This document shows, in pieces, positions 1-16,581 of a DNA stretch of 17,777 bases. Source of the DNA: Candidatus Bathyarchaeia archaeon (GTDB lineage: Archaea; Thermoproteota; Bathyarchaeia; TCS64). The translations under genes were made by a program, and so were the position numbers. The notes beneath the pieces are model-generated. The model was not told where the DNA came from. It did not search any database and was given only the letters and a program-made list of their open reading frames with translations. Location of the stretch: assembly GCA_050014495.1 (NCBI GenBank), contig JBEKDF010000048.1, positions 1 through 17,777 of the forward strand. The letters are read 5' to 3'. Within the stretch, counting starts at the first letter, position 1. Every line of letters begins with the position of its first letter.

Positions 1-102
1 GTTCATCTTGTCCTAAGTGAACTCACCTCCTAGGGTTAGGCAGACCATTGGGGGACGAGACCCCAACTATCAAAATAAGCTTATATTAGCCCTGATGAAT
101 TT

Positions 103-123
103 CGGGACAAGCCAGCGCGCGCA
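103..123 (-). repeat. Element-end-like motif: (RY)n tract + CTGGCTTGTCCCG
   Basis: Minus strand reads TGCGCGCG-CT-GGCTTGTCCCG. 12/13 identical to CTGCCTTGTCCCG at 7090-7102 and similar to the reverse complement of 7546-7558. Confidence 0.55.
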
Positions 124-208
124 AAAGATAATTGGAATCAACTGCGCGCGCCTGTTCGAACATGCTTTAATCGCCTAGGCTTCAATGCCTTATAAACGAT
201 GAACCCCA

Positions 209-1018
209 TTACTTGTCAACGGTCTTTTTTTGTGATCGCATATAGAAGACTATCGCAACGACAACTACAACAACGCCAACTATTGCTAATAACGGGGTAA
301 AGTTTTGCTGTGCACTTTGACTGTTTGAATTATTATCGCTACTTCCTAGAACACTAGTGTAGCTGCTCCCTGATGATTGTGGCCTAGAGTCGGCAATTGT
401 CTGCGCGCTTCTGGCTTGATCATAGTAGTTACTGGCTTGTTGAAGTTTGTTAACGGCATCGTACCATTGACCCTGCTGCGCTGACGAACTAGCTAAGGAA
501 TAAGCGGTGTTTGCCTGCTGTAGATACGATTGTGCGGTTGGATCACTGAATCCCGAATAAGAATCACGCTTGTCCGATACAGTGTTTATTAAATTATTGT
601 AGCTTTTTTCGTAGGCGTCGCCGACGTAAAGAGAACTGGATATCACTGTCTGTGAACCGAGTAGCAGCCCGTTGTCAACCCAGACAACTTTGTAGGTGTG
701 ATAACCCACAGCAACATTGCTGGGTATTGAGAAGTCGAAGGTGAATGTCCCCGTGTACTTTGATGCGATAGTCGGCGTCTGCGGTGCTATAAATGCAACT
801 TTTTGATCGGTTTGCCAGTCGAATTGCAGGTAGCACTGTTTAGTCGTAATCTGATAGCTTGTGTGGTCATTATAAAGAACTACAGTGAGTCGTCCATTAT
901 CTCCCTGGTAGTACCTCGATTGATCAAAGTCGGAGGAATTAGCTTGTTGTGCCTTAGCAATGGGGATCATCATTAAAACTAAGATACCTACAATAATCAT
1001 TTTCTTTGAGTTTAACAT
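209..1018 (-). CDS. Secreted, C-terminally membrane-anchored hypothetical protein
   Basis: N-terminal signal peptide (KKMIIVGILVLMMIPIAKA), beta-rich Ig-like region, helical region, Ser/Asn linker, C-terminal TM helix followed by a basic tail. Confidence 0.8.
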   Translation of the reverse strand: MLNSKKMIIVGILVLMMIPIAKAQQANSSDFDQSRYYQGDNGRLTVVLYNDHTSYQITTKQCYLQFDWQTDQKVAFIAPQTPTIASKYTGTFTFDFSIPSNVAVGYHTYKVVWVDNGLLLGSQTVISSSLYVGDAYEKSYNNLINTVSDKRDSYSGFSDPTAQSYLQQANTAYSLASSSAQQGQWYDAVNKLQQASNYYDQARSAQTIADSRPQSSGSSYTSVLGSSDNNSNSQSAQQNFTPLLAIVGVVVVVVAIVFYMRSQKKTVDK

Positions 1019-1140
1019 TGCAGTTTCATCGTTGAACTCATTTCTTATTTAACCTTTATAGATTCTGAAACAATCAATTCGCTTTCAAATCCTGATAGTA
1101 AGCGCGAACTTCCCGCCAAACAAGGTAGTTAATTCAGGTT

Positions 1141-1263
1141 TCAACTGAGGGCGCGTCCATTCTTCAGTAGGTTTGCTAGAGTAACTAGGTCTATCTCGAC
1201 ATCGTCGTGCAGCTTGGCTCTGGCATCCTCTTTGTATGCATCCTTGTCGAATGAGAAGGCTAC
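1141..1263 (-). pseudogene. C-terminal remnant of an Mrr-like restriction endonuclease domain (as in methyltransferase-endonuclease fusions)
   Basis: Manual translation VAFSFDKDAYKEDARAKLHDDVEIDLVTLANLLKNGRALS* resembles, from recall, the 'VAFSF..GAY.E.ARAK....EI.L.TV..LL' tail. No start codon; it begins inside the RY tract at 1261-1274. Confidence 0.55.
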
Positions 1264-1403
1264 GCGTGCGCATAAAACAAGTCGAAGTACAATTGAAAAC
1301 TAGCGCACATAGCAATTATAGATTTTTAAAAATAGTAGTAATATATATTTAGTATTCTTAAACTTTATATTATTTATTACTTTTAGAAGGTTCTGCGACT
1401 ACT

Positions 1404-1574
1404 ATGGTAAGAGGATTTTGCGGTGTATGTGGTAAAGAAGTTGGCTCAATTTTAAAGCCTAAAGCATGGATCTGCCCATCTTGTAGAAAGGTCTTCTGTC
1501 AGGATTGTTGCCCCAAAGTTGGCCTAGTGTTCAAGAAACCAGCCTGTCCAAACTGTGGGGTCGAATGCAGATAA
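1404..1574 (+). CDS. Small Cys-rich zinc-finger protein (56 aa, four CxxC, RING-like spacing); absent from the ORF track
   Basis: MVRGFCGVCGKEVGSILKPKAWICPSCRKVFCQDCCPKVGLVFKKPACPNCGVECR*. AT-rich TATA-like region upstream. Confidence 0.8.
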   Translation: MVRGFCGVCGKEVGSILKPKAWICPSCRKVFCQDCCPKVGLVFKKPACPNCGVECR

Positions 1575-1583
1575 GTGAGCTAA

Positions 1584-1880
1584 TTGTTACTCCTTGACAA
1601 TAAAGAAAGCTTGGTGCTTCAAAGTCCAGCGAGGTACGAGGGAAAAGCTGGTAATCTATACCTCACCAATGCTAGGTTAATTTTCGAGTATATCGCTGGT
1701 CTTTTATCAAAAAAAACGTATAGAGCTTTAGACCTAAAACTAACGGATATATTATCTATACAAAATGATGAACGAGTTCAAAAACTCACTATTAAATCTA
1801 GTAGGAGAGCAGGCTTAATTTCTTTAACCGTTGAAAAACCTAATTATTGGGAATATCAAATCGGGCTAATGCTCGTTTAA
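1584..1880 (+). CDS. PH-like/GRAM-like domain protein
   Basis: GNLYLTNARLIFE motif typical of GRAM and bacterial PH-like folds. Starts 9 nt after the zinc-finger gene; T-rich tract follows the stop. Confidence 0.65.
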   Translation: MLLLDNKESLVLQSPARYEGKAGNLYLTNARLIFEYIAGLLSKKTYRALDLKLTDILSIQNDERVQKLTIKSSRRAGLISLTVEKPNYWEYQIGLMLV

Positions 1881-2013
1881 TTTTCCTTTCCTTAAATGCG
1901 TGCGCGTGTACGAAAGCTTAGACCAAAATCGACCGTTAAACTACCACTAGTGGTAGCATGTTAAACATTTAAGTTGCCCAGAGAGGAATATACATAGGAG
2001 CTTTGATACATTG

Positions 2014-2520
2014 ATGACCGTGAGCGACGAAACCCTATATGGAATCGCCAACGTACTAGGCGGCGAGCCGGGCATTGAGGTCATCAAGATTCTTAAGGAC
2101 AGGCAGGACATCACCGTCGAGGACATAAGCGCCGCGACTAACATCCAGATAAACGATGTACGAAAGCTCCTCTACAAATTCTACAACCACAGCCTCGTGA
2201 CTTCGAAGAGGTTCAGGGACAAGGAAACTGGGTGGTTCATTTTCCAGTGGCGACTCCAGCCGGAGCTAGTTGAGTCGTACATCCACGGGATGAAGCAGAA
2301 GATATTGAAGAAGCTTGAAACGAGGCTGGAGTTCGAGAGGCTTCATGAGTTCTACCACTGCGGCAACCCAACATGCCCAAAGACAACTTTTGAGGTCGCC
2401 ATGGAGACAGTCTTCAGATGCCCAACATGTGGCGAGCCCCTCCACCGACTCGACAACGCGGAAATCGTAGAATTCCTCGAGAAGAAGGTATCAGAGATCA
2501 AGGAGGAGTTAGAGGCCTGA
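2014..2520 (+). CDS. tfe: Transcription factor E (TFE alpha)
   Basis: Winged helix (VRKLLYKFYNHSLV...RDKETGWFIFQW) plus zinc ribbon (CGNPTC...FRCPTCG). Start ATG 2014 or TTG 2011. Confidence 0.95.
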   Translation: MTVSDETLYGIANVLGGEPGIEVIKILKDRQDITVEDISAATNIQINDVRKLLYKFYNHSLVTSKRFRDKETGWFIFQWRLQPELVESYIHGMKQKILKKLETRLEFERLHEFYHCGNPTCPKTTFEVAMETVFRCPTCGEPLHRLDNAEIVEFLEKKVSEIKEELEA

Positions 2521-3047
2521 GTCTCCCATCGCGGGAAGAATGCATCCATATCCTAAGGAAGGCTGGCTGCAGTAATGGAGTCATCGAGCACTGTATAAAT
2601 GTAACAAGAGTGGCAATGAGGATAGCGAACATCTACAGGAGCAAGGGGTATAGGGTGGACCTTAGGCTCGTCGAGTCCGGTGCTCTTCTCCACGACTTGG
2701 GGCGAGGGAAGACACATGGTATAGAGCATGGCGCTGTCGGTGGCCAAATGGCGAGACAACTTGGTATGCCGATGGAGCTCGCTCAGATTATAGAGCGCCA
2801 TGTGGGAGCCGGTCTAACCCCCCAAGAGGCTCGAAGGAATAATCTCCCAAAGGGAAGCTTCATCCCGGAGACCCTCGAGGAGAAGATAGTTTGTTACGCT
2901 GACAAACTCATCGAGGGTTCCCACGAGGTGGGGATCGACTCGACGATTGATAATTTCGCCCAGGAGCTCGGGAGTGATCACCCAGCTATCAAGAGGCTTC
3001 AAGATCTTCACAAAGAGATGACTGCTGTTCTCGGTGACAAATTCTAG
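2517..3047 (+). CDS. HD-domain (HDIG/TIGR00295-like) metal-dependent phosphohydrolase
   Basis: EHC, ALLHDLG, HGAVG, ERHVGAG and EEKIVCYADKL motifs. Commonly found next to tfe in archaea. Homology starts at LPSREECI, so the ORF-track start at 2418 is probably spurious. Confidence 0.88.
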   Translation: MSLPSREECIHILRKAGCSNGVIEHCINVTRVAMRIANIYRSKGYRVDLRLVESGALLHDLGRGKTHGIEHGAVGGQMARQLGMPMELAQIIERHVGAGLTPQEARRNNLPKGSFIPETLEEKIVCYADKLIEGSHEVGIDSTIDNFAQELGSDHPAIKRLQDLHKEMTAVLGDKF

Positions 3048-3089
3048 GCTGGGGTAGTTTCATATCTCCTAGACCCTACTCCACAACTA

Positions 3090-4256
3090 ATGGTCAACTT
3101 AAGTTTTGATAGTTGTCACGTCGTGGACGCCCACTGCCATCCATTCCTCCCTGGAAAAGAGAGTAGACCTTTTGAGGCCTACCTAACTCTCAGCGATCTT
3201 CCACAGAGGCGTGAGGACCTCACATCGACCATGCTCTACCGGTTGGTCATGCGGGATCTTGGCCGAGTCCTTCGTGTGAGTGGTGAAGATAGGATAATTG
3301 AGGAGAGACAGATGAGGGTGAAATCGGATCCAGCAAAGTACATTAGAATGCTCTTCGACGAGGCGAAGTTAGAGACTCTCCTCGTGGACTCAGGGTATCC
3401 CTTCAAGGAGTTCGTTGGTTATGAGATCGACCTAAAAGACTTCTCCGAGATGGTTGGTAGAGAGGTCCGAGAGATATTCAGGCTCGAGGTTGCTGTCCAC
3501 CTTTTACTGAAGGGCATCGTCCCCTATGATGAAGCCCTCGAGGAGTTTCGAATCCAGATAAGAAAGGCGGTTTCAAGTGGATGCATCGCATTGAAGACAA
3601 TAATCGCCTACCGGACCGGCCTTGCAGTAAAAATCTGGGATGCTGGATTCACAAAGCGATCATGGGAAGGGATGACTTCCTTGATGAGGGATGGTAAGAA
3701 GCCCGGTGCCGTTCTATCAGAGAGAAACGACAGAAACAAGTCTGTTTACGATACCTTCCTGAGGGTGGGTCTGGAAGAGGCGAAGCGTCTCGGCGTCCCG
3801 CTCCAGATACACACGGGCATGGGGGACAGCCCATCTATGGACCTTAGGAATGCTAAACCATCATTACTATATGATCTGCTCCAAGACCCCGTGGCCCGAG
3901 AGACGAACATCGTCCTCACACACGGGGGATATCCCTACATGGAGGAAGCGGCCTTCCTCGCGAACGCGTACCCAAACGTGTACATTGATCTCAGCGAGAC
4001 GATCCCCTTCACCTCTGTCGGGCTCAGTAATAGACTTCTCAGCCTCCTCGAGTTAGCTCCAACAACAAAAATAATGTACGGCTCCGATGGCTTCAACATC
4101 CCGGAACTCTATTGGTTCTCAGCCATTCACACGAAGAGAGTTTTAGCACAGACATTGAACGAACTGATAAAGCACGAGGGACTCGGAGAGGAGGAAGCTA
4201 TCCTCATTGCGAATAACTTCCTAGCTGGTAACGCTAGAAGATTATACCGACTCTAG
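3090..4256 (+). CDS. Amidohydrolase family protein (Amidohydro_2, FluG N-terminal-like)
   Basis: VDAHCH, LKTIIAYRTGL, QIHTGMGD, LTHGGYP and YGSDG motifs. Confidence 0.88.
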   Translation: MVNLSFDSCHVVDAHCHPFLPGKESRPFEAYLTLSDLPQRREDLTSTMLYRLVMRDLGRVLRVSGEDRIIEERQMRVKSDPAKYIRMLFDEAKLETLLVDSGYPFKEFVGYEIDLKDFSEMVGREVREIFRLEVAVHLLLKGIVPYDEALEEFRIQIRKAVSSGCIALKTIIAYRTGLAVKIWDAGFTKRSWEGMTSLMRDGKKPGAVLSERNDRNKSVYDTFLRVGLEEAKRLGVPLQIHTGMGDSPSMDLRNAKPSLLYDLLQDPVARETNIVLTHGGYPYMEEAAFLANAYPNVYIDLSETIPFTSVGLSNRLLSLLELAPTTKIMYGSDGFNIPELYWFSAIHTKRVLAQTLNELIKHEGLGEEEAILIANNFLAGNARRLYRL

Positions 4257-4262
4257 CCTAAC

Positions 4263-4273
4263 GGTTTTAAATA
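4263..4273 (+). promoter_or_regulatory. TATA box of tRNA-Val
   Basis: GGTTTTAAATA about 25-30 nt upstream of the tRNA 5' end. Confidence 0.65.
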
Positions 4274-4297
4274 TGCTACAACTCTCTTCACCGGATG

Positions 4298-4371
4298 GGG
4301 CCGGTCGTCCAGCATGGTAGGACGCCGCCCTTACGCGGCGGAAGTCGCCGGTTCAAGTCCGGCCCGGCCCA
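4298..4371 (+). tRNA. tRNA-Val(TAC), no intron, CCA not encoded
   Basis: Acceptor GGGCCGG/CCGGCCC+A; D stem GTCC/GGAC; anticodon stem CCGCC/GGCGG with loop CT-TAC-GC; T arm GCCGG-TTCAAGT-CCGGC. Confidence 0.97.
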
Positions 4372-4423
4372 TCATCATTACGGTTCAGAACCCTTATAAG
4401 GGCGATGGAACAAATTCTCGCTT

Positions 4424-5705
4424 ATGAAGGGACGCCTCTACGCCCCGCTACTCGAAGACCCAAAAATTAAGCGCTGGCACCAAAACTTAGCCCGTGGATC
4501 ACAAGTAACAGCCGACGTCTACCTCAGAAGACTAGGAAACTTCTGCGAGTCAACCAAAACCACACCACAACAACTCGCAGCAATGAACGAAGAAGAACTC
4601 TACAACCTACTACTAGACACAGTCACCAGCATGGAGAAGAACTACACCGGCAGCTACACACAATCCATAATAAAAGCCATCAAATCATGGCTAAAACACA
4701 ACGGAATCCAAGTCACGAAAGAGATCAAAATCAGGGGAGCCGAAGACGCCCCCACCCTCAAAGACGAGAAAGTACCCACACAGACTGAGCTCAAGAAAAT
4801 ATTCTTATCAACTGACTTGAAGGGTCGGACCGCTTCAGTCCTTGTAGCCCACAGTGGATTGAGACTTGAGACAGTTGGCAACTATTTGGGAGATGACGGG
4901 CTTAGGATCAGGGATCTACCTGAGCTCAAGGTTGAGGGCGAATCTATTGAGTTTGAGCAGATACCCACACTAGTAATCGTCAGAAAGGAAATCAGTAAAG
5001 CCGGCCACCAATACTTCTCATTCCTGTCTGAGGAGGGGTGCGGATACCTCAAAGACTACCTCGAAGCCAGAATGAGAGACGACGAAAAACTCGGAGCAGA
5101 TTCCCCGATTGTGACTCCTAAACAGAGGATGAAACCATTCATCAGATCCACCAACGTCGGCGACGTGATCAGAGACGGTATCCGTAAGGCTGGTTTCCCG
5201 TGGAGGCCCTACGTGCTCCGGTCATACTTTGACACTGAGATGATGCTCGCTGAGTCTAAGGGGCTTGTGCTTCGTGACTATCGTCAGTTCTGGATGGGTC
5301 ACAAGGGTGACATTGAGCATCGCTATACCTTGAATAAGGGTAGGTTGCCTGGTGAGGTTGTGGAGGATCTTCGTGGAGCGTATCGTCGGAGTCAGGAGTA
5401 TCTTGAGACGGGTAGATCTGAGTCTGATAGTGAGGAAAGGCTGAGGGATTCCTTCAGGAAGCAGCTTCTACTGGTAGCTGGGTTTACGTCTGAGGAGGTG
5501 GATGGGATGGATCTGTCTATGGATGATGCCTCCTTCCAGGAGATGGTTAGGAGGAGGCTTGGGGGTCAGTCTGGGGATGGGGGCGGTTCTCAGAGAGTTG
5601 TATCTGTTGGGGACGTGGATGGGTTCCTCTCCCGCGCGCGCGCGTCTGCCGGGGGATAGGATCATTCTGAGGGGACCTGGAGAGTTTTCGCCGTCAAAGA
5701 GTTAG
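4424..5705 (+). CDS. Tyrosine recombinase/integrase next to tRNA-Val; extreme C-terminus frameshifted at a (CG)n tract
   Basis: HSGLR, YVLRSYF, WMGH and RY catalytic motifs; TTATAA about 25-30 nt upstream. The main frame stops at 5659, but the likely true tail LPGDRIILRGP...* continues in another frame to 5705. Confidence 0.85.
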
Positions 5706-5786
5706 TGGTTATCTGTTTGCTGAGAACCAACAGGGCTATTTTTCACATGTATTTATCGAATATTCCTTTCGCGCATGCGCGCTTCT

Positions 5787-5806
5787 ATGAGAACGTTTTC
5801 AGGAGA
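5787..5806 (+). repeat. IS110 sub-terminal inverted repeat (downstream end)
   Basis: ATGAGAACGTTTTCAGGAGA versus the reverse complement of 7064-7084, ATGAGAAACGTTTTCAGGAGA (one indel). Confidence 0.85.
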
Positions 5807-5830
5807 CCCGATGTCCGGGCGGCGTCCCAG

Positions 5831-6907
5831 TTAGTTCCGCAGGCCATCTAACGCTTTCTTACCCATGTTCTTAAGTTTTCTCTCCGTCAACCCCCTATTC
5901 TCGCCCCTGTAAGGCTCCTCCCTCACCAGCATGAAGTACATTATCCTCGCCATCTCATGGGCCACAGCCACCACTGCGCACCCAGCGCCCCTCCGCCGCG
6001 AAACCCGCTCATACATCCCTCCGAGCCTAGAATCATGCCGGACAGCAGTCTGAGCCGACTCCACCAACGCCCACCTCAACCTCTTATTACACGGACCCGA
6101 GACCCCACCGATCTTGGTCCGCTCCCCGGACTGGTGGACGCTTGGCACAAGCCCCATCCACGACGCGAACTCCTTGTCGCCGCGGAACCGGCCGACGTCG
6201 CCGACCTCCGACACAACGAGCATCGCGGTGAAGTACCCGACGCCCGTCATAGTCATCAACAGCCGCACACGCCGGTCCTCCGCCGCGAGTACCGCGATCT
6301 TCTCCTCAATAAGCGTAACCTGGGCGTCCACCGCCTCCAGGACCGCCAGGTCGCTTCTGAGTATGGCGTCGTCCATGAAGCCGAGGCTCAGCCCTCTCAG
6401 CCACTCGATGTTGTCCCTGCTGAAGGGCGTCGCTCCGGGCATGCGGAGCCCATGTTTGTCGAGGAGACCGTGGACCCGGTTCTTCACCTCTGTCCTGTTC
6501 TTCACCAGGTTCAGGCGGTGGCGGAGGAGTTCCCGGCGGCTCCTCAGCTCCTCTCCCGGCACGTAGCAGGTGAAGAGCATGTCGGCTCGGAGTAGCCCGG
6601 CTAGGGTTCTGGCGTCGACCTTGTCGGTCTTAACCTTCGCCTCCGCAATCAGCCTCGTCTTGGATGGGTTTGATAGGGCTACGTCGACTCCGCGTTCCTC
6701 GAGCCTGTCATGGATCGGGATCCACAGGTTCCCAGTGGACTCGACAACGGCCTTCACCTCGTCGTGGAGGGTTGTTAGCTTCACCGCGAACTCCTCGATT
6801 CCATCGGTGTCATTCGGGAAGCGCAGTTCATCAAGTAGGGTTCCATCCTCATCTAGGATGGCGGCTTGACACATCTTTTTATGGACGTCTATTCCCACGT
6901 ACTTCAC
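5831..6907 (-). CDS. IS110-family DEDD recombinase/transposase
   Basis: YVGIDVHK, VVESTG and KTDKVDA (DEDD), and GLVPSVHQSG (catalytic Ser). Likely start GTG 6907 after the RBS GAGGTGA; the ORF track uses 6916. Confidence 0.95.
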   Translation of the reverse strand: MKYVGIDVHKKMCQAAILDEDGTLLDELRFPNDTDGIEEFAVKLTTLHDEVKAVVESTGNLWIPIHDRLEERGVDVALSNPSKTRLIAEAKVKTDKVDARTLAGLLRADMLFTCYVPGEELRSRRELLRHRLNLVKNRTEVKNRVHGLLDKHGLRMPGATPFSRDNIEWLRGLSLGFMDDAILRSDLAVLEAVDAQVTLIEEKIAVLAAEDRRVRLLMTMTGVGYFTAMLVVSEVGDVGRFRGDKEFASWMGLVPSVHQSGERTKIGGVSGPCNKRLRWALVESAQTAVRHDSRLGGMYERVSRRRGAGCAVVAVAHEMARIMYFMLVREEPYRGENRGLTERKLKNMGKKALDGLRN

Positions 6908-7055
6908 GGGTGTCACCTCGGGTGGCCTGCGGGCGGCACGCTCCTATCGGGTCTCTCCACGGACCAGTCGGGTAGCCGCTCGGATCTGGCCCAGTCTGCC
7001 TTAAGGGTCTCACGTGGACCAAGCGCGCGGCGGGCCTAGGCCACCCGCGACACCC
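6908..7055 (-). ncRNA. Bridge/seek RNA of the IS110 element
   Basis: Outer stem 7038-7055/6908-6928 encloses two arms (6988-7036, 6930-6982). Each arm has a large internal loop capped by a GGUC..GACC hairpin. Loop strands match the insertion flanks and the element ends. Confidence 0.85.
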
Positions 7056-7063
7056 TCGGAGTC

Positions 7064-7084
7064 TCTCCTGAAAACGTTTCTCAT
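7064..7084 (-). repeat. IS110 sub-terminal inverted repeat (upstream end)
   Basis: Partner of 5787-5806, located 5 bp inside the CT core at 7090-7091. Confidence 0.85.
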
Positions 7085-7089
7085 ACCGT

Positions 7090-7558
7090 CTGCCTTGTCC
7101 CGTTATTGGTGTAAAATGGTTTTAAATACTCTTTATCCAAACAAGTCATCGAATGGACCCCATCGACGACCAGATCATCAACACCCTTAGAAACGGCAAA
7201 CTCATGAGTTTCGAAGATCTCCTCAATAAGCTGGGTGTTTCACACAACACACTCAGACTCCACCTCGACGCGATGGCCGAGAAAGGAGAGATCAAGAAGG
7301 AAAAACGACCCTCGAAGGGGCGTGGGAGGCCTAGCTATGCCTACTCCGCGGATTCGGTAACCGTAAGGCGGTCTGCTGCTCGCCTTAACCGGGTATCGGG
7401 TGTGGTTTCTCTGAGTTTTGAGAGGCTGAGTCAGGTCTGCAGGTTCGAGAAGGGCGGCTACTGTAAGAGGTTAAGAGGTAGGTGTTACGCCTCGGATTGC
7501 CCCCAAATTCGGTGAGGGGGATTATAACCATTTAAAACCATTTTAGGGAACAGGGCAG
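7090..7558. mobile_element. Putative non-autonomous inverted-repeat-bounded cassette carrying one HTH gene
   Basis: Perfect 16-bp inverted repeat TAAAATGGTTTTAAAT (7112-7127) / ATTTAAAACCATTTTA (7530-7545), plus an outer imperfect inverted repeat CTGCCTTGTCCCG (7090-7102) / GGGAACAGGGCAG (7546-7558). Confidence 0.55.
7153..7515 (+). CDS. Winged-HTH transcriptional regulator with a C-terminal four-Cys motif
   Basis: LGVSHNTLRLHLDAM...GRGRPSYAY HTH and wing; tail C-x7-C-x6-C-x4-C. TATA TTTTAAATA about 25-30 nt upstream. Confidence 0.85.
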   Translation: MDPIDDQIINTLRNGKLMSFEDLLNKLGVSHNTLRLHLDAMAEKGEIKKEKRPSKGRGRPSYAYSADSVTVRRSAARLNRVSGVVSLSFERLSQVCRFEKGGYCKRLRGRCYASDCPQIR

Positions 7559-8264
7559 TGCGCACTTGGAAAACACATGAAGCAGATCTCGGAATACCAT
7601 TTCCTCTTGTTCCGCCTTCGATATGAACAAGTCTAACGGGAGCCTCCTTTTTCAAATCCAATAAAAATATACCAAGTAGTTTGTTAGCGTTAGCTCGAGG
7701 TAGATGAATATCTACACCCGAATGACCACCGAGTAGACCAGAAATATCCAGTCTAAATTCAAGCCAATCTATGGTAGACTCGTAGGAATAAGGTATTTTA
7801 TATTGGGTTCCACTACCTCTAGCTGAGCCAATTATTATTACACCTGCTTCTTCACTATCTAAATTAATCATGTACTTCCCGGTGAAGAAACCAGCCTTCA
7901 TACTAAGTGCGCCTTTTAGACCAGTTTCCTCCTCAACCGTCATTAAGGCTTCAATTTTACCATATTTTGTTAATTTTTGATCACAAAGTAAACCCATCGA
8001 AACTGCTAAGCCAATTCCGTTGTCTGCGACCAGACTTGTACCATCGGACTTTACTATATTTCCTTCGACTCTTACAGGTATTGGGTCCTTATCGAAGTTG
8101 TGCGCGTACGCGCGCTTTCTTGAAGCTAATGTTATTTACACTAGCCCAATTTTCCAACCAATTCTGAAGATCTTTTTCTTTACCTGAACAACGTGGAATC
8201 TTGGAGATTTTTTTTTAAATATTGACCAAGCTAATTCTGGTTCGAGCCCATCGAGTGTTGACAT
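7558..8264 (-). pseudogene. pepD: Aminoacyl-histidine dipeptidase (M20C) pseudogene
   Basis: N-terminus from ATG 8264 (MSTLDGLEPELAWSIF../ISKIPRCSGKEK) with an A9 frameshift. Internal deletion at 8099-8115. Then HNFDKDPI, ADNGIG, TVEEETG, NLDSEE, GGHSGVDI and RANANK. 3' truncated at about 7560. Confidence 0.88.
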
Positions 8265-8394
8265 TATTTTTCACTGCCTCTATAATCTTTTATAAAATAT
8301 TTACAATTTTCTATAGTAACAAAATTTATTCCAAATTAGATTCTAAACTTTCATAATAAAATTTTTTTACTAAATGCATACCTATTTATTTGGT

Positions 8395-9534
8395 ATGTCT
8401 GAAAAGAAATTAAATGATAGAGATCTTGACGACTTCCTCTCCGGCGCTTTAATTCTCGGAACAGGAGGAGGTGGAGGAATCGATTGGGGAAAAAACATGC
8501 TCAATTGGATAAAAGAACATGATAAAATTATTTCAATTATTGATCCTCAAAAAATACCTCAGGATGCTCTTATTGTGGGGGCTGCAGGGGTAGGAGGAGG
8601 AATTACTAAAGAAGAGAGAGAGAAGATTGAGAAAAAATTCGGACCACTCCCAGGGACGAGTGCATACCTTACCACCTCCATTATGGCTGATAAAATGATG
8701 GTTGGACACTTCGGGGAAGATATATCTGCCTATCTAGCCTTTGAACTAGGTTGTGGCAACACAGTTCTGCCCGCTTGTATCGCCGCTATGAATAACAAGC
8801 CACTTGTAGATGGAGACTGTAATGGAAGAGCTGTCCCAGAAATAGAATTATGCACCCTGAACGTTTGTGGGTTTCCATTTACACCAATTGCGATAGTCAC
8901 TCCATATTCAGAAACGATGCTAGTCACACATGTATATGACTATAGCAGAGCTGAGGACATCTGCAGAGCAATGGCCGTTGTCTCAGGAGGAGGATGTATG
9001 ACGATGGGTTCTCCCATAAGGGGAAAGGACCTATCAAAATCAATCGTGAAAAATAGTGTCTCGGGATCAATCAAGTTGGGTCAGTCAATAAGAGAGTCAA
9101 ATGATAAGGGAAAAGACCCTGTAGAAGCCGCTGTGAAAGCATTAGGTGGTAATCTTCTATTTAGAGGAAAAATAAAGCAATTCCAAAGAGAAGAGAGGGG
9201 AGGATTTATGTGGGGAGAACACAACTACGAGGGTACAGGAGATTTTTCAAACCATAAATTTAGGGTTGTGTATAAAAATGAGAACCTCTTATCATGGCTC
9301 GATGGTTTGCCTTATGTGACTTGCCCTGATCTAATTTGTGTCTTAGATGCTAAAGATGGAAAAGGGCTATCGAACTGGGGAAATGACTTTATTACTGGTA
9401 GAGAAGTTGCTGTAATAGGATACAAGATAGATCCCATTTGGCGCACAAAGAGAGGACTTGAGATATTTAGTCCAGCTCACTTTGGATATGATATAAAATA
9501 TAGACCAATCGAGAATGTCGTAACTAAGCCTTAA
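8395..9534 (+). CDS. DUF917 family protein
   Basis: GALILGTGGGG, ELGCGN, DGDCNGRAVPE and YKNENL...VTCPDLI motifs. Start 8395 or 8374. Confidence 0.9.
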   Translation: MSEKKLNDRDLDDFLSGALILGTGGGGGIDWGKNMLNWIKEHDKIISIIDPQKIPQDALIVGAAGVGGGITKEEREKIEKKFGPLPGTSAYLTTSIMADKMMVGHFGEDISAYLAFELGCGNTVLPACIAAMNNKPLVDGDCNGRAVPEIELCTLNVCGFPFTPIAIVTPYSETMLVTHVYDYSRAEDICRAMAVVSGGGCMTMGSPIRGKDLSKSIVKNSVSGSIKLGQSIRESNDKGKDPVEAAVKALGGNLLFRGKIKQFQREERGGFMWGEHNYEGTGDFSNHKFRVVYKNENLLSWLDGLPYVTCPDLICVLDAKDGKGLSNWGNDFITGREVAVIGYKIDPIWRTKRGLEIFSPAHFGYDIKYRPIENVVTKP

Positions 9535-9594
9535 ACCCGATTCCCCTTTTAAATAGTGATAATTGAGGTTCTGAAAAAATCGATTAAAAATTAA

Positions 9595-10632
9595 TTAATC
9601 TTTGTCCCTTGTGAAAACGTATGCAACATTTGCTCCTGTTTGTACACACTGCAGAGCCCCTGAAGTTCCCAAAGATTCTCCACACGAATATGCCCACGTA
9701 TATCCGTCAACTGGCATTCTAATCTTTTCAATGACATCTCCATATAGATCAAATATTTCCGCGAAGACCTCGTCTTTGTTAATCAACTCACCGGGCTTCT
9801 TGAAGAAGCGAATGAGACCACCTTTGTTAGCTCGGATAGGGCCATATCCTCTGCACTTGCCTTCAATAATCGTGAATCCTCCCTGAGGTTCTATGGCTCC
9901 CTCAATCATATTGAAGGTTTTCATTGTGTTGAGGACTCCCTTTACTCCAGCGGTTGTGGATGGTTCAGAGATCCATCTTCCATCAATAAGCTCTATAAGC
10001 AATACAGGTACCCCCTTTTTCCCGGCAAGATTTCCTAATGTCGGCGGAGCATCTTCGTTTAAAGGAGTATCTGACCACATCGTTGTTATTCCGAAAGATT
10101 TAGCCATTTTTATTAGGGCTTCCTTGGTTTTTGGGTTACCTATATTGATTCCCTGCCAGATGAGGGAGTCAGGACGTGTATTGCAGTGAATATTTATTAC
10201 CAAGTCAGCTTTACTCCATGCCTCTTTCCAGAGGGCATAAGCAAGCCGCTCCGTGGAATTTCCATTAGGTCTATCAGCGGTTAGCAAGCTTCCGCTTCCA
10301 CCACCACCGAGATCAAGATTGTCTATCCACGAGAGATACTGATAATGCATGTATGCAAGAGGATTCTCAACGGGAATTCCTATAATTGCCCCTCTCAATT
10401 TGGTGGGATCAATCTTTTCCCTAATCACTTTTTGAATTACTTCAATTCCCTGAATCTCAATTCCATGCTGTGTCGACACCATTAAGAGTGTAGGGCCCTC
10501 AAATGCACCATTTAAAACCAACACAGGTATATCGATACGGGTATTATTGTTAAGTTCAATCCCTTTAATTATCCCTTTTTTCAATTCGCCTCTGCTAGCT
10601 GACACGTTTCCAACTTCGATTTTTTCAGACAT
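9595..10632 (-). CDS. Succinylglutamate desuccinylase/aspartoacylase-like (M14 AstE/AspA) protein
   Basis: GPTLLMVSTQHGIE, ENP, TERLA, INIH and IEL motifs, plus a C-terminal biotinyl/lipoyl-like domain. Confidence 0.85.
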   Translation of the reverse strand: MSEKIEVGNVSASRGELKKGIIKGIELNNNTRIDIPVLVLNGAFEGPTLLMVSTQHGIEIQGIEVIQKVIREKIDPTKLRGAIIGIPVENPLAYMHYQYLSWIDNLDLGGGGSGSLLTADRPNGNSTERLAYALWKEAWSKADLVINIHCNTRPDSLIWQGINIGNPKTKEALIKMAKSFGITTMWSDTPLNEDAPPTLGNLAGKKGVPVLLIELIDGRWISEPSTTAGVKGVLNTMKTFNMIEGAIEPQGGFTIIEGKCRGYGPIRANKGGLIRFFKKPGELINKDEVFAEIFDLYGDVIEKIRMPVDGYTWAYSCGESLGTSGALQCVQTGANVAYVFTRDKD

Positions 10633-10745
10633 ACAACCACAAGAAAAATCTTCAAATTAATATTTAAAACATTTTAATGAAATATTTAGCAGGTTAATTA
10701 TTTATTATCAAGGATACTTGCGTACATTTGAATACATTGAGTACG

Positions 10746-11786
10746 ATGGAGGAACGAACTCTAGGTAGGACAGGCCTCAGAGTGAAAAGGTTAGGCTTTG
10801 GTGGTATTCCCATACAGAGAGTGACTGAAAATGAAGCTATCGACGTTGTTCGAGGCTGTTATGAGATTGGCATAAATTTCTTCGATACCGCAAGGGCTTA
10901 TACTACCAGCGAAAAAAGAATCGGCAAAGCTTTAAAAGATGTTAGAGAAAAGGTGATTATTGCTACTAAAACCGTTAAACGTACAAAATTAGAGTTACTA
11001 AAGGATTTAGAAACTAGTCTAAATGAACTACAGACAGAATGGATCGATTTATATCAGTTACATATGGTATCTAAAGCTGATGAATGGAAACAGATATCTA
11101 GTGATGGTGGAGCTTTAGACGGCTTATACGAAGCAAAAGATTTAGGAAAAATAAATCATATAGGGATAACTAGTCACAATCCAGAATTAATGATTGAGGT
11201 CTTGAAGGAGAATATATTTGAAACGGTTATGGTGCAGTTCAATTATCTTACACCAAGTCCTGCCGAAGAATTACTTCCATGGTGTAAAAGAAATAAAATA
11301 GGGACTATCGCAATGAAGCCTATGGGAGGGGGTGCTTTAAGCGATAAGAATACCGCATTAAAATATGCAGTTAATAATAATGATCTAGATATCATAATAC
11401 CGGGAATGATGAGTTTAAACGAAGTTAAACAAAATTTTGAAGTAACTTCCGAGAATACACTCATCGATAAAAATGATTTAGATATCATTGAAAAAGATAA
11501 GAAAGAATTAGGTAACGAGTTTTGTAGAGCCTGTGATTATTGTAAGCCTTGTCCACAAGGTATCTCAATATCTTTCGTATTAAGAGCTGAAAAACAATTA
11601 ATACGACTTTCAGGGTGGAACCCTCGATTCGAAAAACAAATCCCCGAAGAAAACAAGAAGGTAGCAACATGCCTACAGTGCGGCGAATGTGAAATGAGGT
11701 GTCCCTATCAATTACCTATACATGAGCTATTGCCTAAAAAAATGGAGGCTCTAATGCGACGTTACAAATTAGAGACCGGCTTATGA
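10746..11786 (+). CDS. Aldo/keto reductase with a C-terminal 4Fe-4S dicluster domain
   Basis: LGRTG, GINFFDTARAY, ATK, IDLYQLH and AMKPMGGG; CRACDYCKPCP and CLQCGECEMRCP. Start 10746 or 10728. Confidence 0.92.
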   Translation: MEERTLGRTGLRVKRLGFGGIPIQRVTENEAIDVVRGCYEIGINFFDTARAYTTSEKRIGKALKDVREKVIIATKTVKRTKLELLKDLETSLNELQTEWIDLYQLHMVSKADEWKQISSDGGALDGLYEAKDLGKINHIGITSHNPELMIEVLKENIFETVMVQFNYLTPSPAEELLPWCKRNKIGTIAMKPMGGGALSDKNTALKYAVNNNDLDIIIPGMMSLNEVKQNFEVTSENTLIDKNDLDIIEKDKKELGNEFCRACDYCKPCPQGISISFVLRAEKQLIRLSGWNPRFEKQIPEENKKVATCLQCGECEMRCPYQLPIHELLPKKMEALMRRYKLETGL

Positions 11787-11862
11787 CAAATTGAGTCTAA
11801 AATCATAGAATACCATGAATCTTAAACTCATGAACAGTATAGTAATATACGGGGTAAACAAA

Positions 11863-13047
11863 ATGAAAAGCTTAACAAAGAGAGACCTTTGGTACTCGGT
11901 CATAGGCGGAGCAGCCTTATCTACAGGTGGGGGAGGAGCCCCGGTTTCTTATGAACAGTTTAGTGAAGCGATTGATCCCGTTATCCAATCTGAATGCAAA
12001 CTCAATTTGATAGATGCGGCCTCAGTCCCTGATGAAGAATTGGTATTTATCAGTGCAGGCGTAGGTGGGGGGCTTGAAAGGGAATTATCTGAAAAATATA
12101 TGCGGCGTTTTACGAGCGTTCAAGATTGGATAAAGGAGATGGATAGAATTTATCCACTTCCCTCATGGGCCGAGAAACCTGATGATGATTGGTTGATGAT
12201 GCCACACAAGAAAATGGTCGAATTGAAGGAAAAAGAAGCGTTTGCATATATGCCCTTCGAAATTGGTCCAAATAATTATCGAGAGTTCATAAGGGCAGGT
12301 ATGCTGGGAATACCAGTGATTGACGCCGACAATGCTGGCTGCAGAGCGGTCCCAGAGATATCATTAGCCACCTTAAATGTTGTAAATGCCCCTATTGCAC
12401 CTGCGGTAACTTGCACATCCTGGGGAGATATGGCAATCTTTGAAAAGTTCCTTAGTTGGCAGAGAGCTGAGGATCTGATAAGGCACATGGCCATTATCTC
12501 TGGTGGTGGATGTTCAGGGATGTTGTGCTTCTCTGGACAATGGATAAAGAAAGGTGTTGTGGATGGCACTCTATCTCTTTCAATGAGATTGGGCGAAGCT
12601 ATAAGTAATGCAAGAGAGAAGAAACATGATCCTGTAGAGGCCATAATCAATACAACTAAAGGCTATGTTTTATTCAAGGGAGAAATAGCTGCCTACACTA
12701 ATGAAGGAAAAAGCGCATTTACTTGGGGAAATGCTTGGATTAAGGGTAAAGATGCTTATGAAGGAAAGACATATCGACTTTGGTATAAAAATGAGAACCA
12801 GATAAGTTGGATAAACGATGTACCATATGTAACATGCCCAGACCCATTCACAGTTGTTGACAGCGATAGCGGGGAAGGTCTATCTAATTTTACACCAACA
12901 AGTTGGAATCAAGGAAGGAAAGTAACGGTGTGGGGAATGAAGTCAGCGTCTCTCTGGAGAACACCTCGAGGTCTGAAAATTTATAATCCCAAACACTTTG
13001 GCTTCGACATCGGATATAAACCAATAGAGGATATTACTAAAAATTAA
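11863..13047 (+). CDS. DUF917 family protein (second, divergent paralog)
   Basis: GGAALSTGGGG, EIGP, DADNAGCRAVPE, YKNENQ...VTCPD and PKHFG. Start 11863 (GGGGT RBS) or 11815. Confidence 0.88.
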   Translation: MKSLTKRDLWYSVIGGAALSTGGGGAPVSYEQFSEAIDPVIQSECKLNLIDAASVPDEELVFISAGVGGGLERELSEKYMRRFTSVQDWIKEMDRIYPLPSWAEKPDDDWLMMPHKKMVELKEKEAFAYMPFEIGPNNYREFIRAGMLGIPVIDADNAGCRAVPEISLATLNVVNAPIAPAVTCTSWGDMAIFEKFLSWQRAEDLIRHMAIISGGGCSGMLCFSGQWIKKGVVDGTLSLSMRLGEAISNAREKKHDPVEAIINTTKGYVLFKGEIAAYTNEGKSAFTWGNAWIKGKDAYEGKTYRLWYKNENQISWINDVPYVTCPDPFTVVDSDSGEGLSNFTPTSWNQGRKVTVWGMKSASLWRTPRGLKIYNPKHFGFDIGYKPIEDITKN

Positions 13048-13069
13048 CCTAGTCCAGGTATCTCCTCTC

Positions 13070-13860
13070 GATTTTTTAAATTCTTTCTTGAAAGAAATAG
13101 AATAAAGAGAGGGTCTCCTGACTTGATCATTAAACCTTGTATGTATTAGCTTTCGTATTTGATGATATAGATCTGTCTTTATTCCATACTCGAGCTTCGG
13201 GTGGTCTTAGTATGTGTCAAGAAGCCCGAGGTAATCGTCAGCATTATATGTTATACTCCATGGGTACTCCTTTGTAGTCACCTCGCTAAAGAGACCAGAT
13301 TCCTCGATCTGACGCCTCGTCTACTGTACCCACATAGCTGTTGACGGTTTGTCCCGTAGAGAAGACCAATCTAGGACTAATTTTTTATATATTTCCTGTA
13401 CATCCAGGAAGAAACCGGTGTATGGTGAGGGATGGAGGTTCCAAAAGAGTGCAATGACCCCGTTGTCCTTCAAGACCTCATCAGCCTTTTTAAAACCAAT
13501 ACCCTGTTTTATCCAGTGCCATGAAGTTGCAGCAATTAAGAGATCGAAGTTTCTATTCGTTTTCCAATTTTCGAAATACGTAGTAATGAAATCTACGTCT
13601 AATCCTTTACATCTTACTTTAGCAACCTCGACAAGGTTTAAACCAAGTTCGATGGCAGTAACCTTGTATCCTCGTAAAGCGAATGGAAGCGTAGCCTGTC
13701 CGGTGCCGCAGCCAATCTCTAAAATACTGCCTCCTGGAGGTATCTGCGAGTAATCGAATATGTCTTCAATAAGTTCCTTAGGGTATCCGGGACGAACACT
13801 ATTATAAGCTTGAGCATCCTCATTAAATGATTCTGAATACTCCCTGGGAAACCTGAACAT
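13070..13860 (-). pseudogene. Class I SAM-dependent methyltransferase pseudogene
   Basis: RPGYP, LEIGCGTG and SWHW motifs. Homology continues past the TAG at 13321 (IEESGLFSEV..YPWS), through a frameshift near 13250 (YNADDYLGLLDTY*DH), a second stop at 13207-13209 and a further frameshift near 13113. The 3' end is approximate. Confidence 0.82.
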
Positions 13861-13936
13861 ACACTACATATTGGTTTTTCCTTTAAAAAATTATTTTATT
13901 TTACATTAATTTCGCCAGTGCATAGAGGAAAGGGGA

Positions 13937-14605
13937 TCATTCTACTATTTCCATAAGCACTCTCCCAACTAGGGTACTGCTTTGTATTACAGGCTTCTTA
14001 GTGATTTCTTTCACAATCAATTTCATCTTATGTGTGAACCCCATACAATTTAAGAAAACTAGATCAACGTTCTCCTTAGAGACCCTCTTAGCCATATTCT
14101 CTACTTCATTTATTGAACCGTAAGGTGAAGCAGAGTCATAATATACTTTCAACTCTAAACCGTATAAATCCGATGCCATTTTCGGTATCTGCTCTTTTGC
14201 GGGGAGAATAACCGCCAATTTTCCTCGTCTAAGAGAAGCAGCGATGGTGCCTCTAACGATCTCTGAAGGTTGAATGATTAAGTGCTTAGAGTTAAAATCA
14301 GGAAATTTACCTGTGCAAAGAAGTAATATTATCTCAATATTCTTTTCCTCAAGATAATCTACGCAGTTCTGGATTTTTGACACAATGAACTCATGAGAAA
14401 CCTTCATTTCTTGACCGTTTCTGAGCCTTGTAACTAGTAAGCGTTCCCCAGGCTGTAGCTTTATCTTTCCTAACTCTTCGGGTAAGTAATCATCAAGTGC
14501 CCCCTTCTCAACAATCTCGTACTCTCCTCCAATGACTCTTTGGATTTCTTCTATGACATCCGGTCTGGGGGATTGTCCTATTGTGATTATTCCGATTCGT
14601 TTCAT
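13937..14605 (-). CDS. aroM: AroM family protein
   Basis: GIITIGQSPRPD, LVTRLRNG, LLCTGKFP, ASPY and LNCMGF motifs. Confidence 0.88.
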   Translation of the reverse strand: MKRIGIITIGQSPRPDVIEEIQRVIGGEYEIVEKGALDDYLPEELGKIKLQPGERLLVTRLRNGQEMKVSHEFIVSKIQNCVDYLEEKNIEIILLLCTGKFPDFNSKHLIIQPSEIVRGTIAASLRRGKLAVILPAKEQIPKMASDLYGLELKVYYDSASPYGSINEVENMAKRVSKENVDLVFLNCMGFTHKMKLIVKEITKKPVIQSSTLVGRVLMEIVE

Positions 14606-14694
14606 GGCAAATTAATAATTCACCATATTATAAATATCTTTTTTAACAAAAAATATAATAACTTAAAAAAATGGTATTTAATTTCGAGTTAAAC

Positions 14695-15408
14695 ATGAAG
14701 CTTAGAATAATTACCCCTGTACTTGGTGTTAAAAGAACAAACCCTGAAGAGTATATCTCGAAGCTGAGAAAATACTCAGGCATTGATGAAAAAACTGAAC
14801 TTGATGTGGTTAGGGTTGAAAAAGGTCCTGCCTCGATAGAATCAAGATATGATGAGACTTTTGCCATTCCCTCAGTGTTATCAATTATAAAAAACTCTCT
14901 CGAAATTGACGGAATCGTAGTAAATTGTTTCGCAGATCCTGGAGTCAATGCAGGAAGGGAAATATCAGATATTCCAATCTTAGGTCCTGGTCAATCCTCG
15001 ATGCTCATTGCTTCCGCGTTATGTGATAAGTTTTCCATCATTACTATTCTTAAAAATATTGTACCTGAGCTAAATGAACACGCTAGACAATATGGACTTC
15101 AAGGGAAGCTTTCGTCGATTAGAGCCATCGATGTTCCTGTTCTTGATCTTCACAATAGCGAGGAAATAACCATCAAGAAACTGATTGAAGAAGGCAAAAA
15201 AGCAATTACGGAGGATGGTGCTGAGGTGCTTATACTGGGATGTACAGGATTTACTGGTATGGCGGATACAATATCTCAAAAACTTGGAGTATACGTTATC
15301 GATCCATTGCCAACGGCATTAAAACTTGCTGAAACCCTAGCTTGTCTAAAATTATCTCATAGCAAAATCACATATCCTCAGCCGCCAAAGAAAATAATTG
15401 TGACATAA
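14695..15408 (+). CDS. Asp/Glu/hydantoin racemase family (hydantoin-racemase-like)
   Basis: GPASIES, NCFADPG and ILGCTG with both catalytic Cys; divergent from aroM. Start 14695 or 14671. Confidence 0.9.
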   Translation: MKLRIITPVLGVKRTNPEEYISKLRKYSGIDEKTELDVVRVEKGPASIESRYDETFAIPSVLSIIKNSLEIDGIVVNCFADPGVNAGREISDIPILGPGQSSMLIASALCDKFSIITILKNIVPELNEHARQYGLQGKLSSIRAIDVPVLDLHNSEEITIKKLIEEGKKAITEDGAEVLILGCTGFTGMADTISQKLGVYVIDPLPTALKLAETLACLKLSHSKITYPQPPKKIIVT

Positions 15409-15420
15409 AATTTGAGGAAC

Positions 15421-16581
15421 TTATTCCTCAATTATCTCAACGTTTGCCCTGGGAACAACTACATTTCTGTTTCCTAGCCTTATTTCGACAACCCTTACAA
15501 GGGCACCCGTCTCCACTTTAACAAGGTCTACTGGAAGGTGTGACACAATTCCGATCTCACCGAAGTAGGGATCCGCGATAATTCTTATTGGCGTTCCAGG
15601 TCTCATGCCTTTCACTGTTTCATTGGACACCTCTGTCTTTTTTATCACAGTTCCTTTCCGGATTGGTATAATTATTTCAGGTCTGAGTACACCCGCCCTA
15701 ATCTGAGTAGCCCCGTTAATCGCAGCTTTTTCACCAGCAAATTTGGATAACAATTTGAAGGTCTTATCAGACATACGCATCTCCCCGAACCCCTCTGTAG
15801 CAATTAGCGAGAGGGGAATATTTTCTTCTCCTGTTATAGCTACTCCAATTTCGTAACCCAAGTATTGAGTTATATCAACGCTTCTTATTCCACCTACGAC
15901 AATGCCTTTAACTCCCACTTCAGTTGCTTTTTTTAATACTTCGAGGGTAGCCAAGCTTCCGCCAATCAATATTTTTCCTTTATGTTCTGTAGTTATCATC
16001 TCTGGAGTTATTATCTCATCGGGGGATTTTGCTATAATTGCGATCTCACCGTTTCTTTCTCCTCCAATTCCGAAAATTCCCTGAATATAGGCAGCTTCAT
16101 TTTCAATGATGACCCCCTCGTTAGGTAATATTTTCTTAATTTTTCCTTTCATATATGCAACTAAATCAACAGGGATCGGTTCACATCTCAGAACGCATTG
16201 ACCCGTTGCGGATGAGTAGTTTTCTAATGTGCAAGTTTCAGAGGTCTTAATTTCCTTTTTAAAAAGTCCCCAAAAAGGTGAGTATTTCGCTATTATTTCG
16301 TCTTTTTGTAATTTATCGCCAATTTTTTTTGTAAGGAATTTCGGAACGTCATTTGTTGATACACCTAGGAGGTCAGCAACTCTTAGCATAATTGGGGCGC
16401 CAGGTATCTTGGTTCTGGCGACAATTGTATCAAAATCAACTTCTTGCCCTTGTTTAACAAGTACCTCTCCTATAAGAGGCAATCTTCTTGTTTTAGTTAC
16501 AACCTCAAATTCTTTTACTTTCAAACCGGGAGTATAAGCGTACGCTTCTTCAGAATTTGGCTCAGTCGTGTTCTTCGGCAT
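15421..16581 (-). CDS. Conserved hypothetical protein of GlmL-like operons (C-terminal KOW/SH3-like region)
   Basis: AYTPGLKV, IQGIFGIGGE, TEGFG and GATQIRAGVLRPE. Directly coupled to the upstream gene (TAA-ATG, RBS GGAGGTG). Confidence 0.75.
   Translation of the reverse strand: MPKNTTEPNSEEAYAYTPGLKVKEFEVVTKTRRLPLIGEVLVKQGQEVDFDTIVARTKIPGAPIMLRVADLLGVSTNDVPKFLTKKIGDKLQKDEIIAKYSPFWGLFKKEIKTSETCTLENYSSATGQCVLRCEPIPVDLVAYMKGKIKKILPNEGVIIENEAAYIQGIFGIGGERNGEIAIIAKSPDEIITPEMITTEHKGKILIGGSLATLEVLKKATEVGVKGIVVGGIRSVDITQYLGYEIGVAITGEENIPLSLIATEGFGEMRMSDKTFKLLSKFAGEKAAINGATQIRAGVLRPEIIIPIRKGTVIKKTEVSNETVKGMRPGTPIRIIADPYFGEIGIVSHLPVDLVKVETGALVRVVEIRLGNRNVVVPRANVEIIEE

Follow-up and report, generated by a model that had tools for sequence, protein, structure and literature searches.

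What writes the short, GC-rich tracts of alternating purines and pyrimidines (RY tracts) that stand at broken genes is the question raised by contig JBEKDF010000048.1 of a Bathyarchaeia archaeon (GenBank assembly GCA_050014495.1), the whole of which is called the window here (17,777 nt; contig C48 of genome G000). An initial annotation, made from the letters of the window alone, had listed eight such tracts and ascribed them to an end-joining pathway adding non-templated or snap-back filler, for example by a primase-polymerase. The present analysis gives good support to tracts being written at DNA joints, and we put at roughly 0.6 the probability that this filler comes from a PriS-like primase, mobile and standing alone, that copies a loop in a structured RNA of its own. 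G000 is a peat metagenome bin of 3.1 Mb in 92 contigs, 96% complete and with 7.5% contamination; genomes, contigs and loci are cited by G, C and L numbers.

Tracts at DNA joints

That the tracts are written at joints is well supported, because 34 of 64 truncation points in G000 carry a tract and none of 34 sites in intact homologues holds GCGCGC. For this comparison, 2671 open reading frames (ORFs) were searched against G000, and sharp-ended hits with at least 60% identity were kept; tracts stood at 1 to 5 of the 64 truncating ends after displacement to six shifted positions, at 1 of 27 open ends, and at 23 of 325 natural ends. Both the enrichment at breakpoints and the absence from intact copies anticipated by the initial annotation were therefore observed. 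The homologues were paralogues, not exact parents, and GCGC or CGCG was present in them at 2 of the 34 sites, where the background is 4.5%. Tract and homologue shared 120 of 402 letters, mostly the first few. Several gene fragments bore a tract at both ends. A self-alignment of the DNA was a weak test (tracts at 161 of 1549 alignment ends, compared with 3.7 to 6.1% at outward shifts and 8.6% at random non-ORF positions), and reliance was therefore placed on the protein-level test. Within the window, the four breakpoints named earlier (the Mrr-like remnant, the integrase tail, the internal deletion of pepD, and the 3' end of pepD) hold, and the pepD and integrase-tail joints together with the 34-site comparison support the reading of the tracts as filler added at joints, not parental sequence.

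The eight tracts have the coordinates and letters originally given, and seven of them were bridged, with 0 differing letters, by contigs of other public runs (X2, X3, X4), the independent check that had been proposed; the eighth, at 115-123, was covered with fewer than 31 letters on its left side. No strain lacking a filler was seen among eight runs. The window holds five GC-rich RY runs of at least 13 nt, compared with a mean of 0.16 in sequences simulated by a local order-2 Markov model, of which 0 of 300 reached five. Across G000, there were 100 RY runs of at least 16 nt (13 to 14 simulated at order 3, 22 to 35 at order 5), and GCGCGCGC occurred 1024 times on both strands against 60.5 expected, 17-fold over the order-3 model. 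Only 23% of the 186 G000 runs of at least 12 nt with a GC fraction of at least 0.75 lay inside ORFs, while 83% of the genome is coding, and the tracts were clustered (variance 5.4, mean 2.0 per 10 kb). Tract interiors were 81% G+C, and single changes inside GC runs were transitions in 62 of 73 cases. A polarity with T on the left and A on the right was inconsistent between cut-offs (p 0.002, 0.27, and 0.15).

Two features that the initial annotation had stressed did not survive. Mirrored A/T pairs in tract interiors were as frequent as in shuffles of the same letters (0.492 and 0.490), so that by this measure the tracts are no more palindromic than their shuffles, and RY alternation is not the essence of the signature, since related loci bear (TAGC)n scars, which do not alternate. 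Decay by CpG or GpC methylation was considered as the source of the tracts and rejected, as TA was not depleted and AT was enriched.

A stand-alone primase and its structured RNA

The primase of G000 is a 268-amino-acid protein encoded at 7058-7864 of contig C53. Its family (about 270 amino acids, stand-alone, PriS-like) comprised 91 homologues and was met in 231 stretches of metagenome and at 30 loci in genomes, under titles from Bathyarchaeia, Brockarchaeota, and Nitrososphaerota. It is an archaeo-eukaryotic PriS-like primase, scoring above the PF01896 cut-off and having PriS proteins as its nearest solved relatives (PDB hits, E 3e-13), and the catalytic residues D99, D101, H154, and D205 (DxD, SxxxGxH, and the third Asp) were present in all 47 aligned rows. 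It is distinct from the replicative PriS, a 419-amino-acid protein encoded on C1. No conserved neighbours of the gene were found, PADLOC matched none of five proteins to a defence-system family, and viral contigs yielded four distant primase hits and no RNA. About 14 primase loci (a subset of L155-L206) share a downstream ORF family, and about nine have a RadA-like gene upstream of the primase.

A conserved element of about 90 to 130 nt was found at the 3' end of the primase gene in 72 of 110 loci, a set that takes in fragments and contig-cut loci. In 27 sequences belonging to a single subtype, helix P1 of the element was paired in every cell (100%) and covaried, with 48 cells changed on both sides compared with 18.5 in shuffles, 0 of 500 of which were as high. 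A second helix, whose register could be placed only roughly (64% paired), crosses P1 and so forms a pseudoknot; the loop between the helices is unpaired and consists of a self-complementary core followed by As. RNAalifold returned one helix only on a mixed alignment. The element also carries a CUGA/GAUGA motif, which we take to be a k-turn, and Rfam gave no match at E <= 1 in eight loci. Structure and covariation support a structured RNA dedicated to the primase, in which a short stretch would serve as template and the product would be its complement, the templating itself being predicted.

G000 contains eight copies of the RNA, two of them 2.4 and 2.7 kb downstream of the C53 primase. Copies stand at the 3' ends of unrelated ORFs on C56, C21, C53, C16, C40, C62, and C15 (L226, L234, L238, L240, and L242-L245), often supply the stop codon of the ORF, and have fairly precise ends. 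The RNA may move on its own, in the manner of a short interspersed nuclear element. The stretch directly behind the RNA held no surplus of scars (5 of 71, compared with 10 of 199).

The loop was compared with the surrounding scars, with the RNA masked, in 71 loci (of 83 loci with an RNA hit, the loop could be parsed in 79, of which 5 fell in no class and 3 were duplicates); the set includes loci from the genome collection and is thus not fully independent of the genome comparisons below. The ends of GC runs matched the reverse complement of the local loop in 58 cases, against 27.4 +/- 5.5 after permutation, and the match persisted when primases were merged at 90, 75, and 65% identity (p 0.0001, 0.0015, and 0.0018), the last leaving 16 primase clusters. 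The four loci with an AGCU loop, which belong to one clade and three of which read AGCUAGCU, contained seven (TAGC)n arrays in 15.5 kb, compared with two in the 253 kb of the other 67 loci.

Whole genomes gave similar contrasts. The commonest flank and core of a run was AT-GC in G000, whose loop is GCGCAU (159 of 918), and TA-GC in G113, whose loop is ACGCGCUAA (21 of 92), as well as in G106 (loop GCGCU, a type shared with G113); G119, with the loop GCGCGUA, had TA-CG in 13 of 72. Counts of TAGCGCGCG and of its reversed control were 253 and 25 in G113, 388 and 31 in G106, and 51 and 60 in G000. G106 also had 5 (TAGC)n arrays per 100 kb, compared with 0 to 0.33 in five other genomes, and holds an RNA remnant resembling, by eye, the 3' half of the AGCU clade RNA. 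Judged by these comparisons of sequence, the RNA loop is a predictor of scar ends across loci. Since the end letters follow the loop of the associated RNA and mirrored A/T pairs are not in excess, the non-templated or snap-back mode originally proposed is disfavoured, while a primase-family enzyme stands as the best candidate. As a separate observation, (CATG)n words numbered 22 in G106 (L312-L321) against 4.4 expected, and would fit the CAUGCAU loop type of L138.

The signature was patchy across the class. Counts of YGCGCGCGCR, uncorrected for GC content, ranged from 0 to 292 within the genus, with 113 in the single-contig genome G021, and in the 401 genomes compared, several further families also had some members with high counts. 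The RNA was found in seven other genomes of the genus, with 19 to 216 tracts; it was not found in G001 and G010 (0 and 1 tracts), nor in several tract-rich genomes such as G013. Hits at E 0.14 to 0.17 in G013 and G262 fell in coding DNA, seemed to be due to chance, and were left out of the count. A search of five tract-poor genomes, run without a positive control, also gave none.

Other PriS-like genes were noted. G000 encodes a 439-amino-acid PriS paralogue on C20 (26047-27366; L048), the C-terminal half of which has no assignment, present also in G005, G007, G013, and G017 and lying beside a gene presumably related to oligosaccharyltransferases; it was rejected as the writer, being in few relatives only and not in G021. 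Contig C46 of G138 (L248) has another short PriS-like gene, with a frame of 232 amino acids, beside a tRNA-like sequence.

Mechanism and rival explanations

A primase-RNA writer appears likely because the scar runs change across relatives when the RNA loop changes. The primase would hold the RNA, and a broken 3' end would pair with one to four loop bases and be extended; the overlap of tract starts with the homologue fits such pairing, by eye. The extended end could then realign on the self-complementary core, whose sequence is GC or, in one clade, AGCU, adding repeats. Two self-complementary tails would anneal, making any two ends joinable, with host enzymes filling and sealing and Ku-LigD perhaps sealing joints where present. 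Such joining would be expected to produce filled deletions, gene fragments captured between two tracts, and dispersal of the RNA itself, while IS5/IS1182-like insertion sequences (ISs) would later target the scars and IS110 the joint between scar and IS. The module would be mobile, and its frequent loss would leave behind scars, fragments of genes, and remnants of the RNA; scarred genomes without it would represent such losses. On balance, we favour the wider view of a mobile telomerase-like ribonucleoprotein on a primase fold in archaea, in which a PriS paralogue and a pseudoknotted template RNA would write self-complementary repeats on broken DNA, make any ends joinable, reshape accessory genomes, and found target niches for two further tiers of ISs.

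A number of observations weigh against the primase as writer. Hits of the primase profile were confined to 24 of the 401 genomes of the class, some of them being fragments or other PriS paralogues, and in the single-contig, tract-rich genomes G021 and G106 it found only the replicative PriS. There was no credible RNA hit in G021 (E 0.27) and none in G363, G206, and G342. Conversely, G155 has primase and RNA and showed no repeat excess in the 411 kb read of about 1.5 Mb, and G116, G161, G164, G265, and G176 have primase hits and only 1 to 7 tracts. Only 18 to 20% of scar ends matched the loop, compared with 8 to 10% by chance, and loop types cluster on a quick primase tree, so that kin are not independent. 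In G000, the primase gene no longer has the RNA at its 3' end, T was not in excess before ATGCGCGC (72 of 273), and the tracts showed no read-through past the core. The one full-length RNA type fails to account for internal AC/GT steps. In G119, TA-GC ends (14) were as many as the TA-CG ends (13) predicted by its one known RNA.

The main rival is a host enzyme, either replicative PriSL-type end joining or a lineage-specific polymerase, that writes the repeats while the RNA loop merely mirrors them, as a guide or because it is itself scar-born. Tract-rich single-contig genomes lacking the primase, the confounding of loop type with host kinship, and the repair of breaks by Saccharolobus PriSL through microhomology with annealing of 2 to 4 GC pairs, as described in the text available (PMC12019639), speak for it. 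The replicative PriS, however, is present in 38 of 41 genomes, tract-free ones included; PriSL indels are mostly 1 to 2 bp according to the same text; the loop has one fixed position within a conserved fold next to a polymerase whose active site is intact; and AGCU-loop RNAs have (TAGC)n arrays beside them. We regard a host writer as unlikely, though it deserves serious consideration. Much less probable, and largely refuted as a source, is an origin of the tracts as target sites, duplications, or excision footprints of the IS5/IS1182-like family. It draws on the 43 of 144 loose terminal-repeat matches that are preceded by GCGCG, on whole elements bracketed by CGCG, and on the three of eight window tracts that flank such ends. 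Yet only 24 of 945 tracts adjoin a terminal repeat, none of the 64 truncation points lies near one, the homologues lack the GCGCGC target at all 34 sites, the transposase was not found in tract-rich G013, G015, and G003 and only in distant form in G021, and the (TAGC)n arrays are left unexplained. These elements and IS110 use existing tracts as targets and do not account for them.

Filler addition by a bacterial-type nonhomologous end-joining (NHEJ) operon is similarly improbable. The operon (PolDom, Ku, and a ligase fused to a phosphoesterase) is intact in G000 (C3, 64206-67463; L047), and of 17 further members of the genus, 14 have Ku; but Ku also occurs in G001 (0 tracts), G010 (1 tract), and G018 (4 tracts), and searches did not find it in G021, a single contig with 113 tracts, or in G022, G023, and G039. 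In all, Ku was present in 16 of 41 genomes searched, all of one family, so that the Ku/LigD co-occurrence suggested by the initial annotation exists in G000 without tracking the signature. No reverse transcriptase (PF00078) or Prim-Pol families were found in G000. It is very doubtful that the tracts were there beforehand, or lengthened by slippage where DNA is under no selection, and drew breaks to themselves, for instance as Z-DNA: the tracts do lie mostly outside ORFs and in clusters, but coding sequence has been replaced at joints with both sides known, TA steps are not depleted as CpG decay would require, and such patterns are generally suppressed in prokaryotes, as far as the consulted part of PMC4060949 states. 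An assembly or amplification artefact, for which the fragmentation and contamination of the G000 bin might be cited, is refuted at the contig level by the same tracts in contigs of other runs and by the signature in single-contig genomes, and its probability is negligible.

If the primase and its RNA are the writer, the closest parallels would be telomerase and DRT10, which, in the sections of 10.1101/2025.10.16.682844 consulted, share with it the predicted addition of repeats from a short loop template in a structured RNA, by extension and realignment, and the position of the template 3' of a stem-loop and beside a pseudoknot. The enzyme here, in contrast, is an archaeo-eukaryotic primase without a reverse transcriptase fold, and the products are short, self-complementary, and located at internal joints; DRT10 is described there as protein-primed and antiviral. 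PriSL end joining in Saccharolobus resembles the proposed system in having a PriS-family core that acts at double-strand breaks with GC-pair annealing and differs in using the replicative enzyme with PriL, instead of a separate paralogue with its own RNA and fillers of 8 to 24 nt; the term RNA template is absent from the main text of that report (PMC12019639). The isolated PriS-like domain of PolpTN2, without its PriL part, has reverse transcriptase and terminal transferase activity in vitro, although PolpTN2 is a PriS-PriL fusion for plasmid replication, with no dedicated RNA in the text consulted (PMC3973330). Archaeo-prokaryotic NHEJ, in the portions seen of PMC4538821 and PMC4797286, likewise places a primase-family polymerase at breaks; its Ku, PolDom, ligase, and phosphoesterase are all in G000, and its occurrence across genomes does not track the scars. 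In its main text, a survey of primases from mobile elements (PMC5862659) mentions neither Bathyarchaeota nor non-coding partners. The literature searched, mostly outside subscription papers and supplements, contained no account of such scars, of a primase with its own template RNA, or of a genome-wide, lineage-flavoured joint signature used by IS5-like and IS110 elements.

If the primase-RNA reading is correct, RNA-templated repeat synthesis would have arisen on the primase fold as well as on the reverse transcriptase fold, which would bear on the origin of telomerase-like chemistry and on end joining in archaea without Ku. Each earlier deletion or capture of a gene in these genomes would be recorded by a scar, and an end-tailing enzyme that can be programmed might serve as a tool. 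The claim is directly testable, as it involves one 270-amino-acid protein and an RNA of about 100 nt, with natural loop variants predicting different products. Even with another writer, there remains a signature at joints that spans the genome, has the flavour of its lineage, and is put to use by IS5-like and IS110 elements.

Scars and insertion sequences of the window

Three of the eight tracts (115-123, 5770-5782, and 7558-7565) are now the flanks of ISs that target them; the initial annotation had placed the first two at segment or element borders and the third at the 3' end of pepD. The window opens with the end of an IS5/IS1182-like element (1-115, plus strand), a terminal inverted repeat cut by the contig end; positions 1-123 match 12 other places in G000 at 83 to 100%. 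The tract at 115-123 is its insertion-site flank, GCGCG following the end in 12 of 13 listed copies and the 13th adjoining an IS110. An element of about 1280 bp with a DDE_Tnp_1 plus DUF772 transposase is bracketed by CGCG inside GC runs, as is the miniature element described below; the transposase of the longer element scored 94.9 of 270 bits against NF033551 and 93.6 of 140 bits against NF033581.

The tract at 143-151, between this flank and the 3' end of the ORF at 209-1018, is a probable scar; no homologue spanning it was found in G000 or the loci compared, and its parents were not found. At 1144-1263 on the minus strand lies a remnant comprising the last 35 to 40 or so codons of a DNA methylase-Mrr fusion gene (44% identity over 34 amino acids to the C terminus of a 456-residue N6_N4_Mtase plus Mrr_cat protein of G123), and the scar at 1261-1274 marks its 5' break, the homology starting at 1263. 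The scar at 1896-1912 forms the right border of an AT-rich island upstream of the TFE gene; relatives align only from 1954-2011 onward, seven of nine having a conserved gene end there instead, and positions 1920-1974 match contig C55. A tyrosine integrase gene beside tRNA-Val (4298-4371) occupies 4424-5659 on the plus strand and is frameshifted near its 3' end, where a (CG)6T filler at 5633-5645 stands for eight codons (24 nt) of the C71 paralogue, with homology resuming right after it.

The scar at 5770-5782 lies where homology to contig C92 (5724-5771) stops, two letters into the tract, and later served as the left flank of a miniature inverted-repeat transposable element (MITE) and as the target of an IS110. 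The IS110 (5782-7089, minus strand; transposase 5831-6916) is inserted between the GC tract and the IS terminal repeat, with the core CT. Its assignment rests on a DEDD transposase scoring above the NF033542 cut-off and on a fixed target with a dinucleotide core; left ends follow GCGC in five of five cases, and right ends adjoin the IS repeat in two of two. Both element groups resemble the bridge-RNA systems in their sequence-specific choice of target, so far as the parts consulted of PMC11208160 and PMC11187229 describe it, and the window IS110 has, besides its CT core, guide-like words. On a minus-strand reading, its leader (6996-7002 and 7022-7029) holds CGCGCGCU and AAGGCAG, which correspond to the GC run with its core and to the IS terminal repeat in complement, in the manner of a bridge-RNA target loop, and both words are kept in a copy on C17; folding of the leader was no better than that of shuffles (z -0.8).

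The MITE (7090-7557, plus strand) carries IS terminal repeats and a helix-turn-helix gene (7153-7515). This element and a second non-autonomous derivative (C79, 7079-7544) each encode a helix-turn-helix protein of about 120 amino acids with a C-terminal Cys cluster and no transposase. The RY tract at 7558-7565 is the right flank of the MITE and marks the cut 3' end of a pepD (M20 dipeptidase) pseudogene (7563-8264, minus strand), pepD homology ending at 7563. Within the pseudogene, the filler at 8099-8115 replaces 39 homologue codons with about 13 nt, as judged from P0002-P0005 and the paralogue on C65. Among 17 relatives, no intact orthologue close to this pepD was found, two of them giving matches that were distant or trivial.

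Positions 8374-17777 had no GC-rich tract of at least 9 nt, compared with six in the first 8.4 kb. This part of the window is an AT-rich catabolic island with two S-Me-THD-like genes and genes for AroM, a racemase, and a glutamate-mutase MutL-like protein. Elsewhere in G000, 10-mers around GTGAGGATAAG form a separate dispersed repeat of more than 100 copies, strongly over-represented, which sits upstream of some primase loci.

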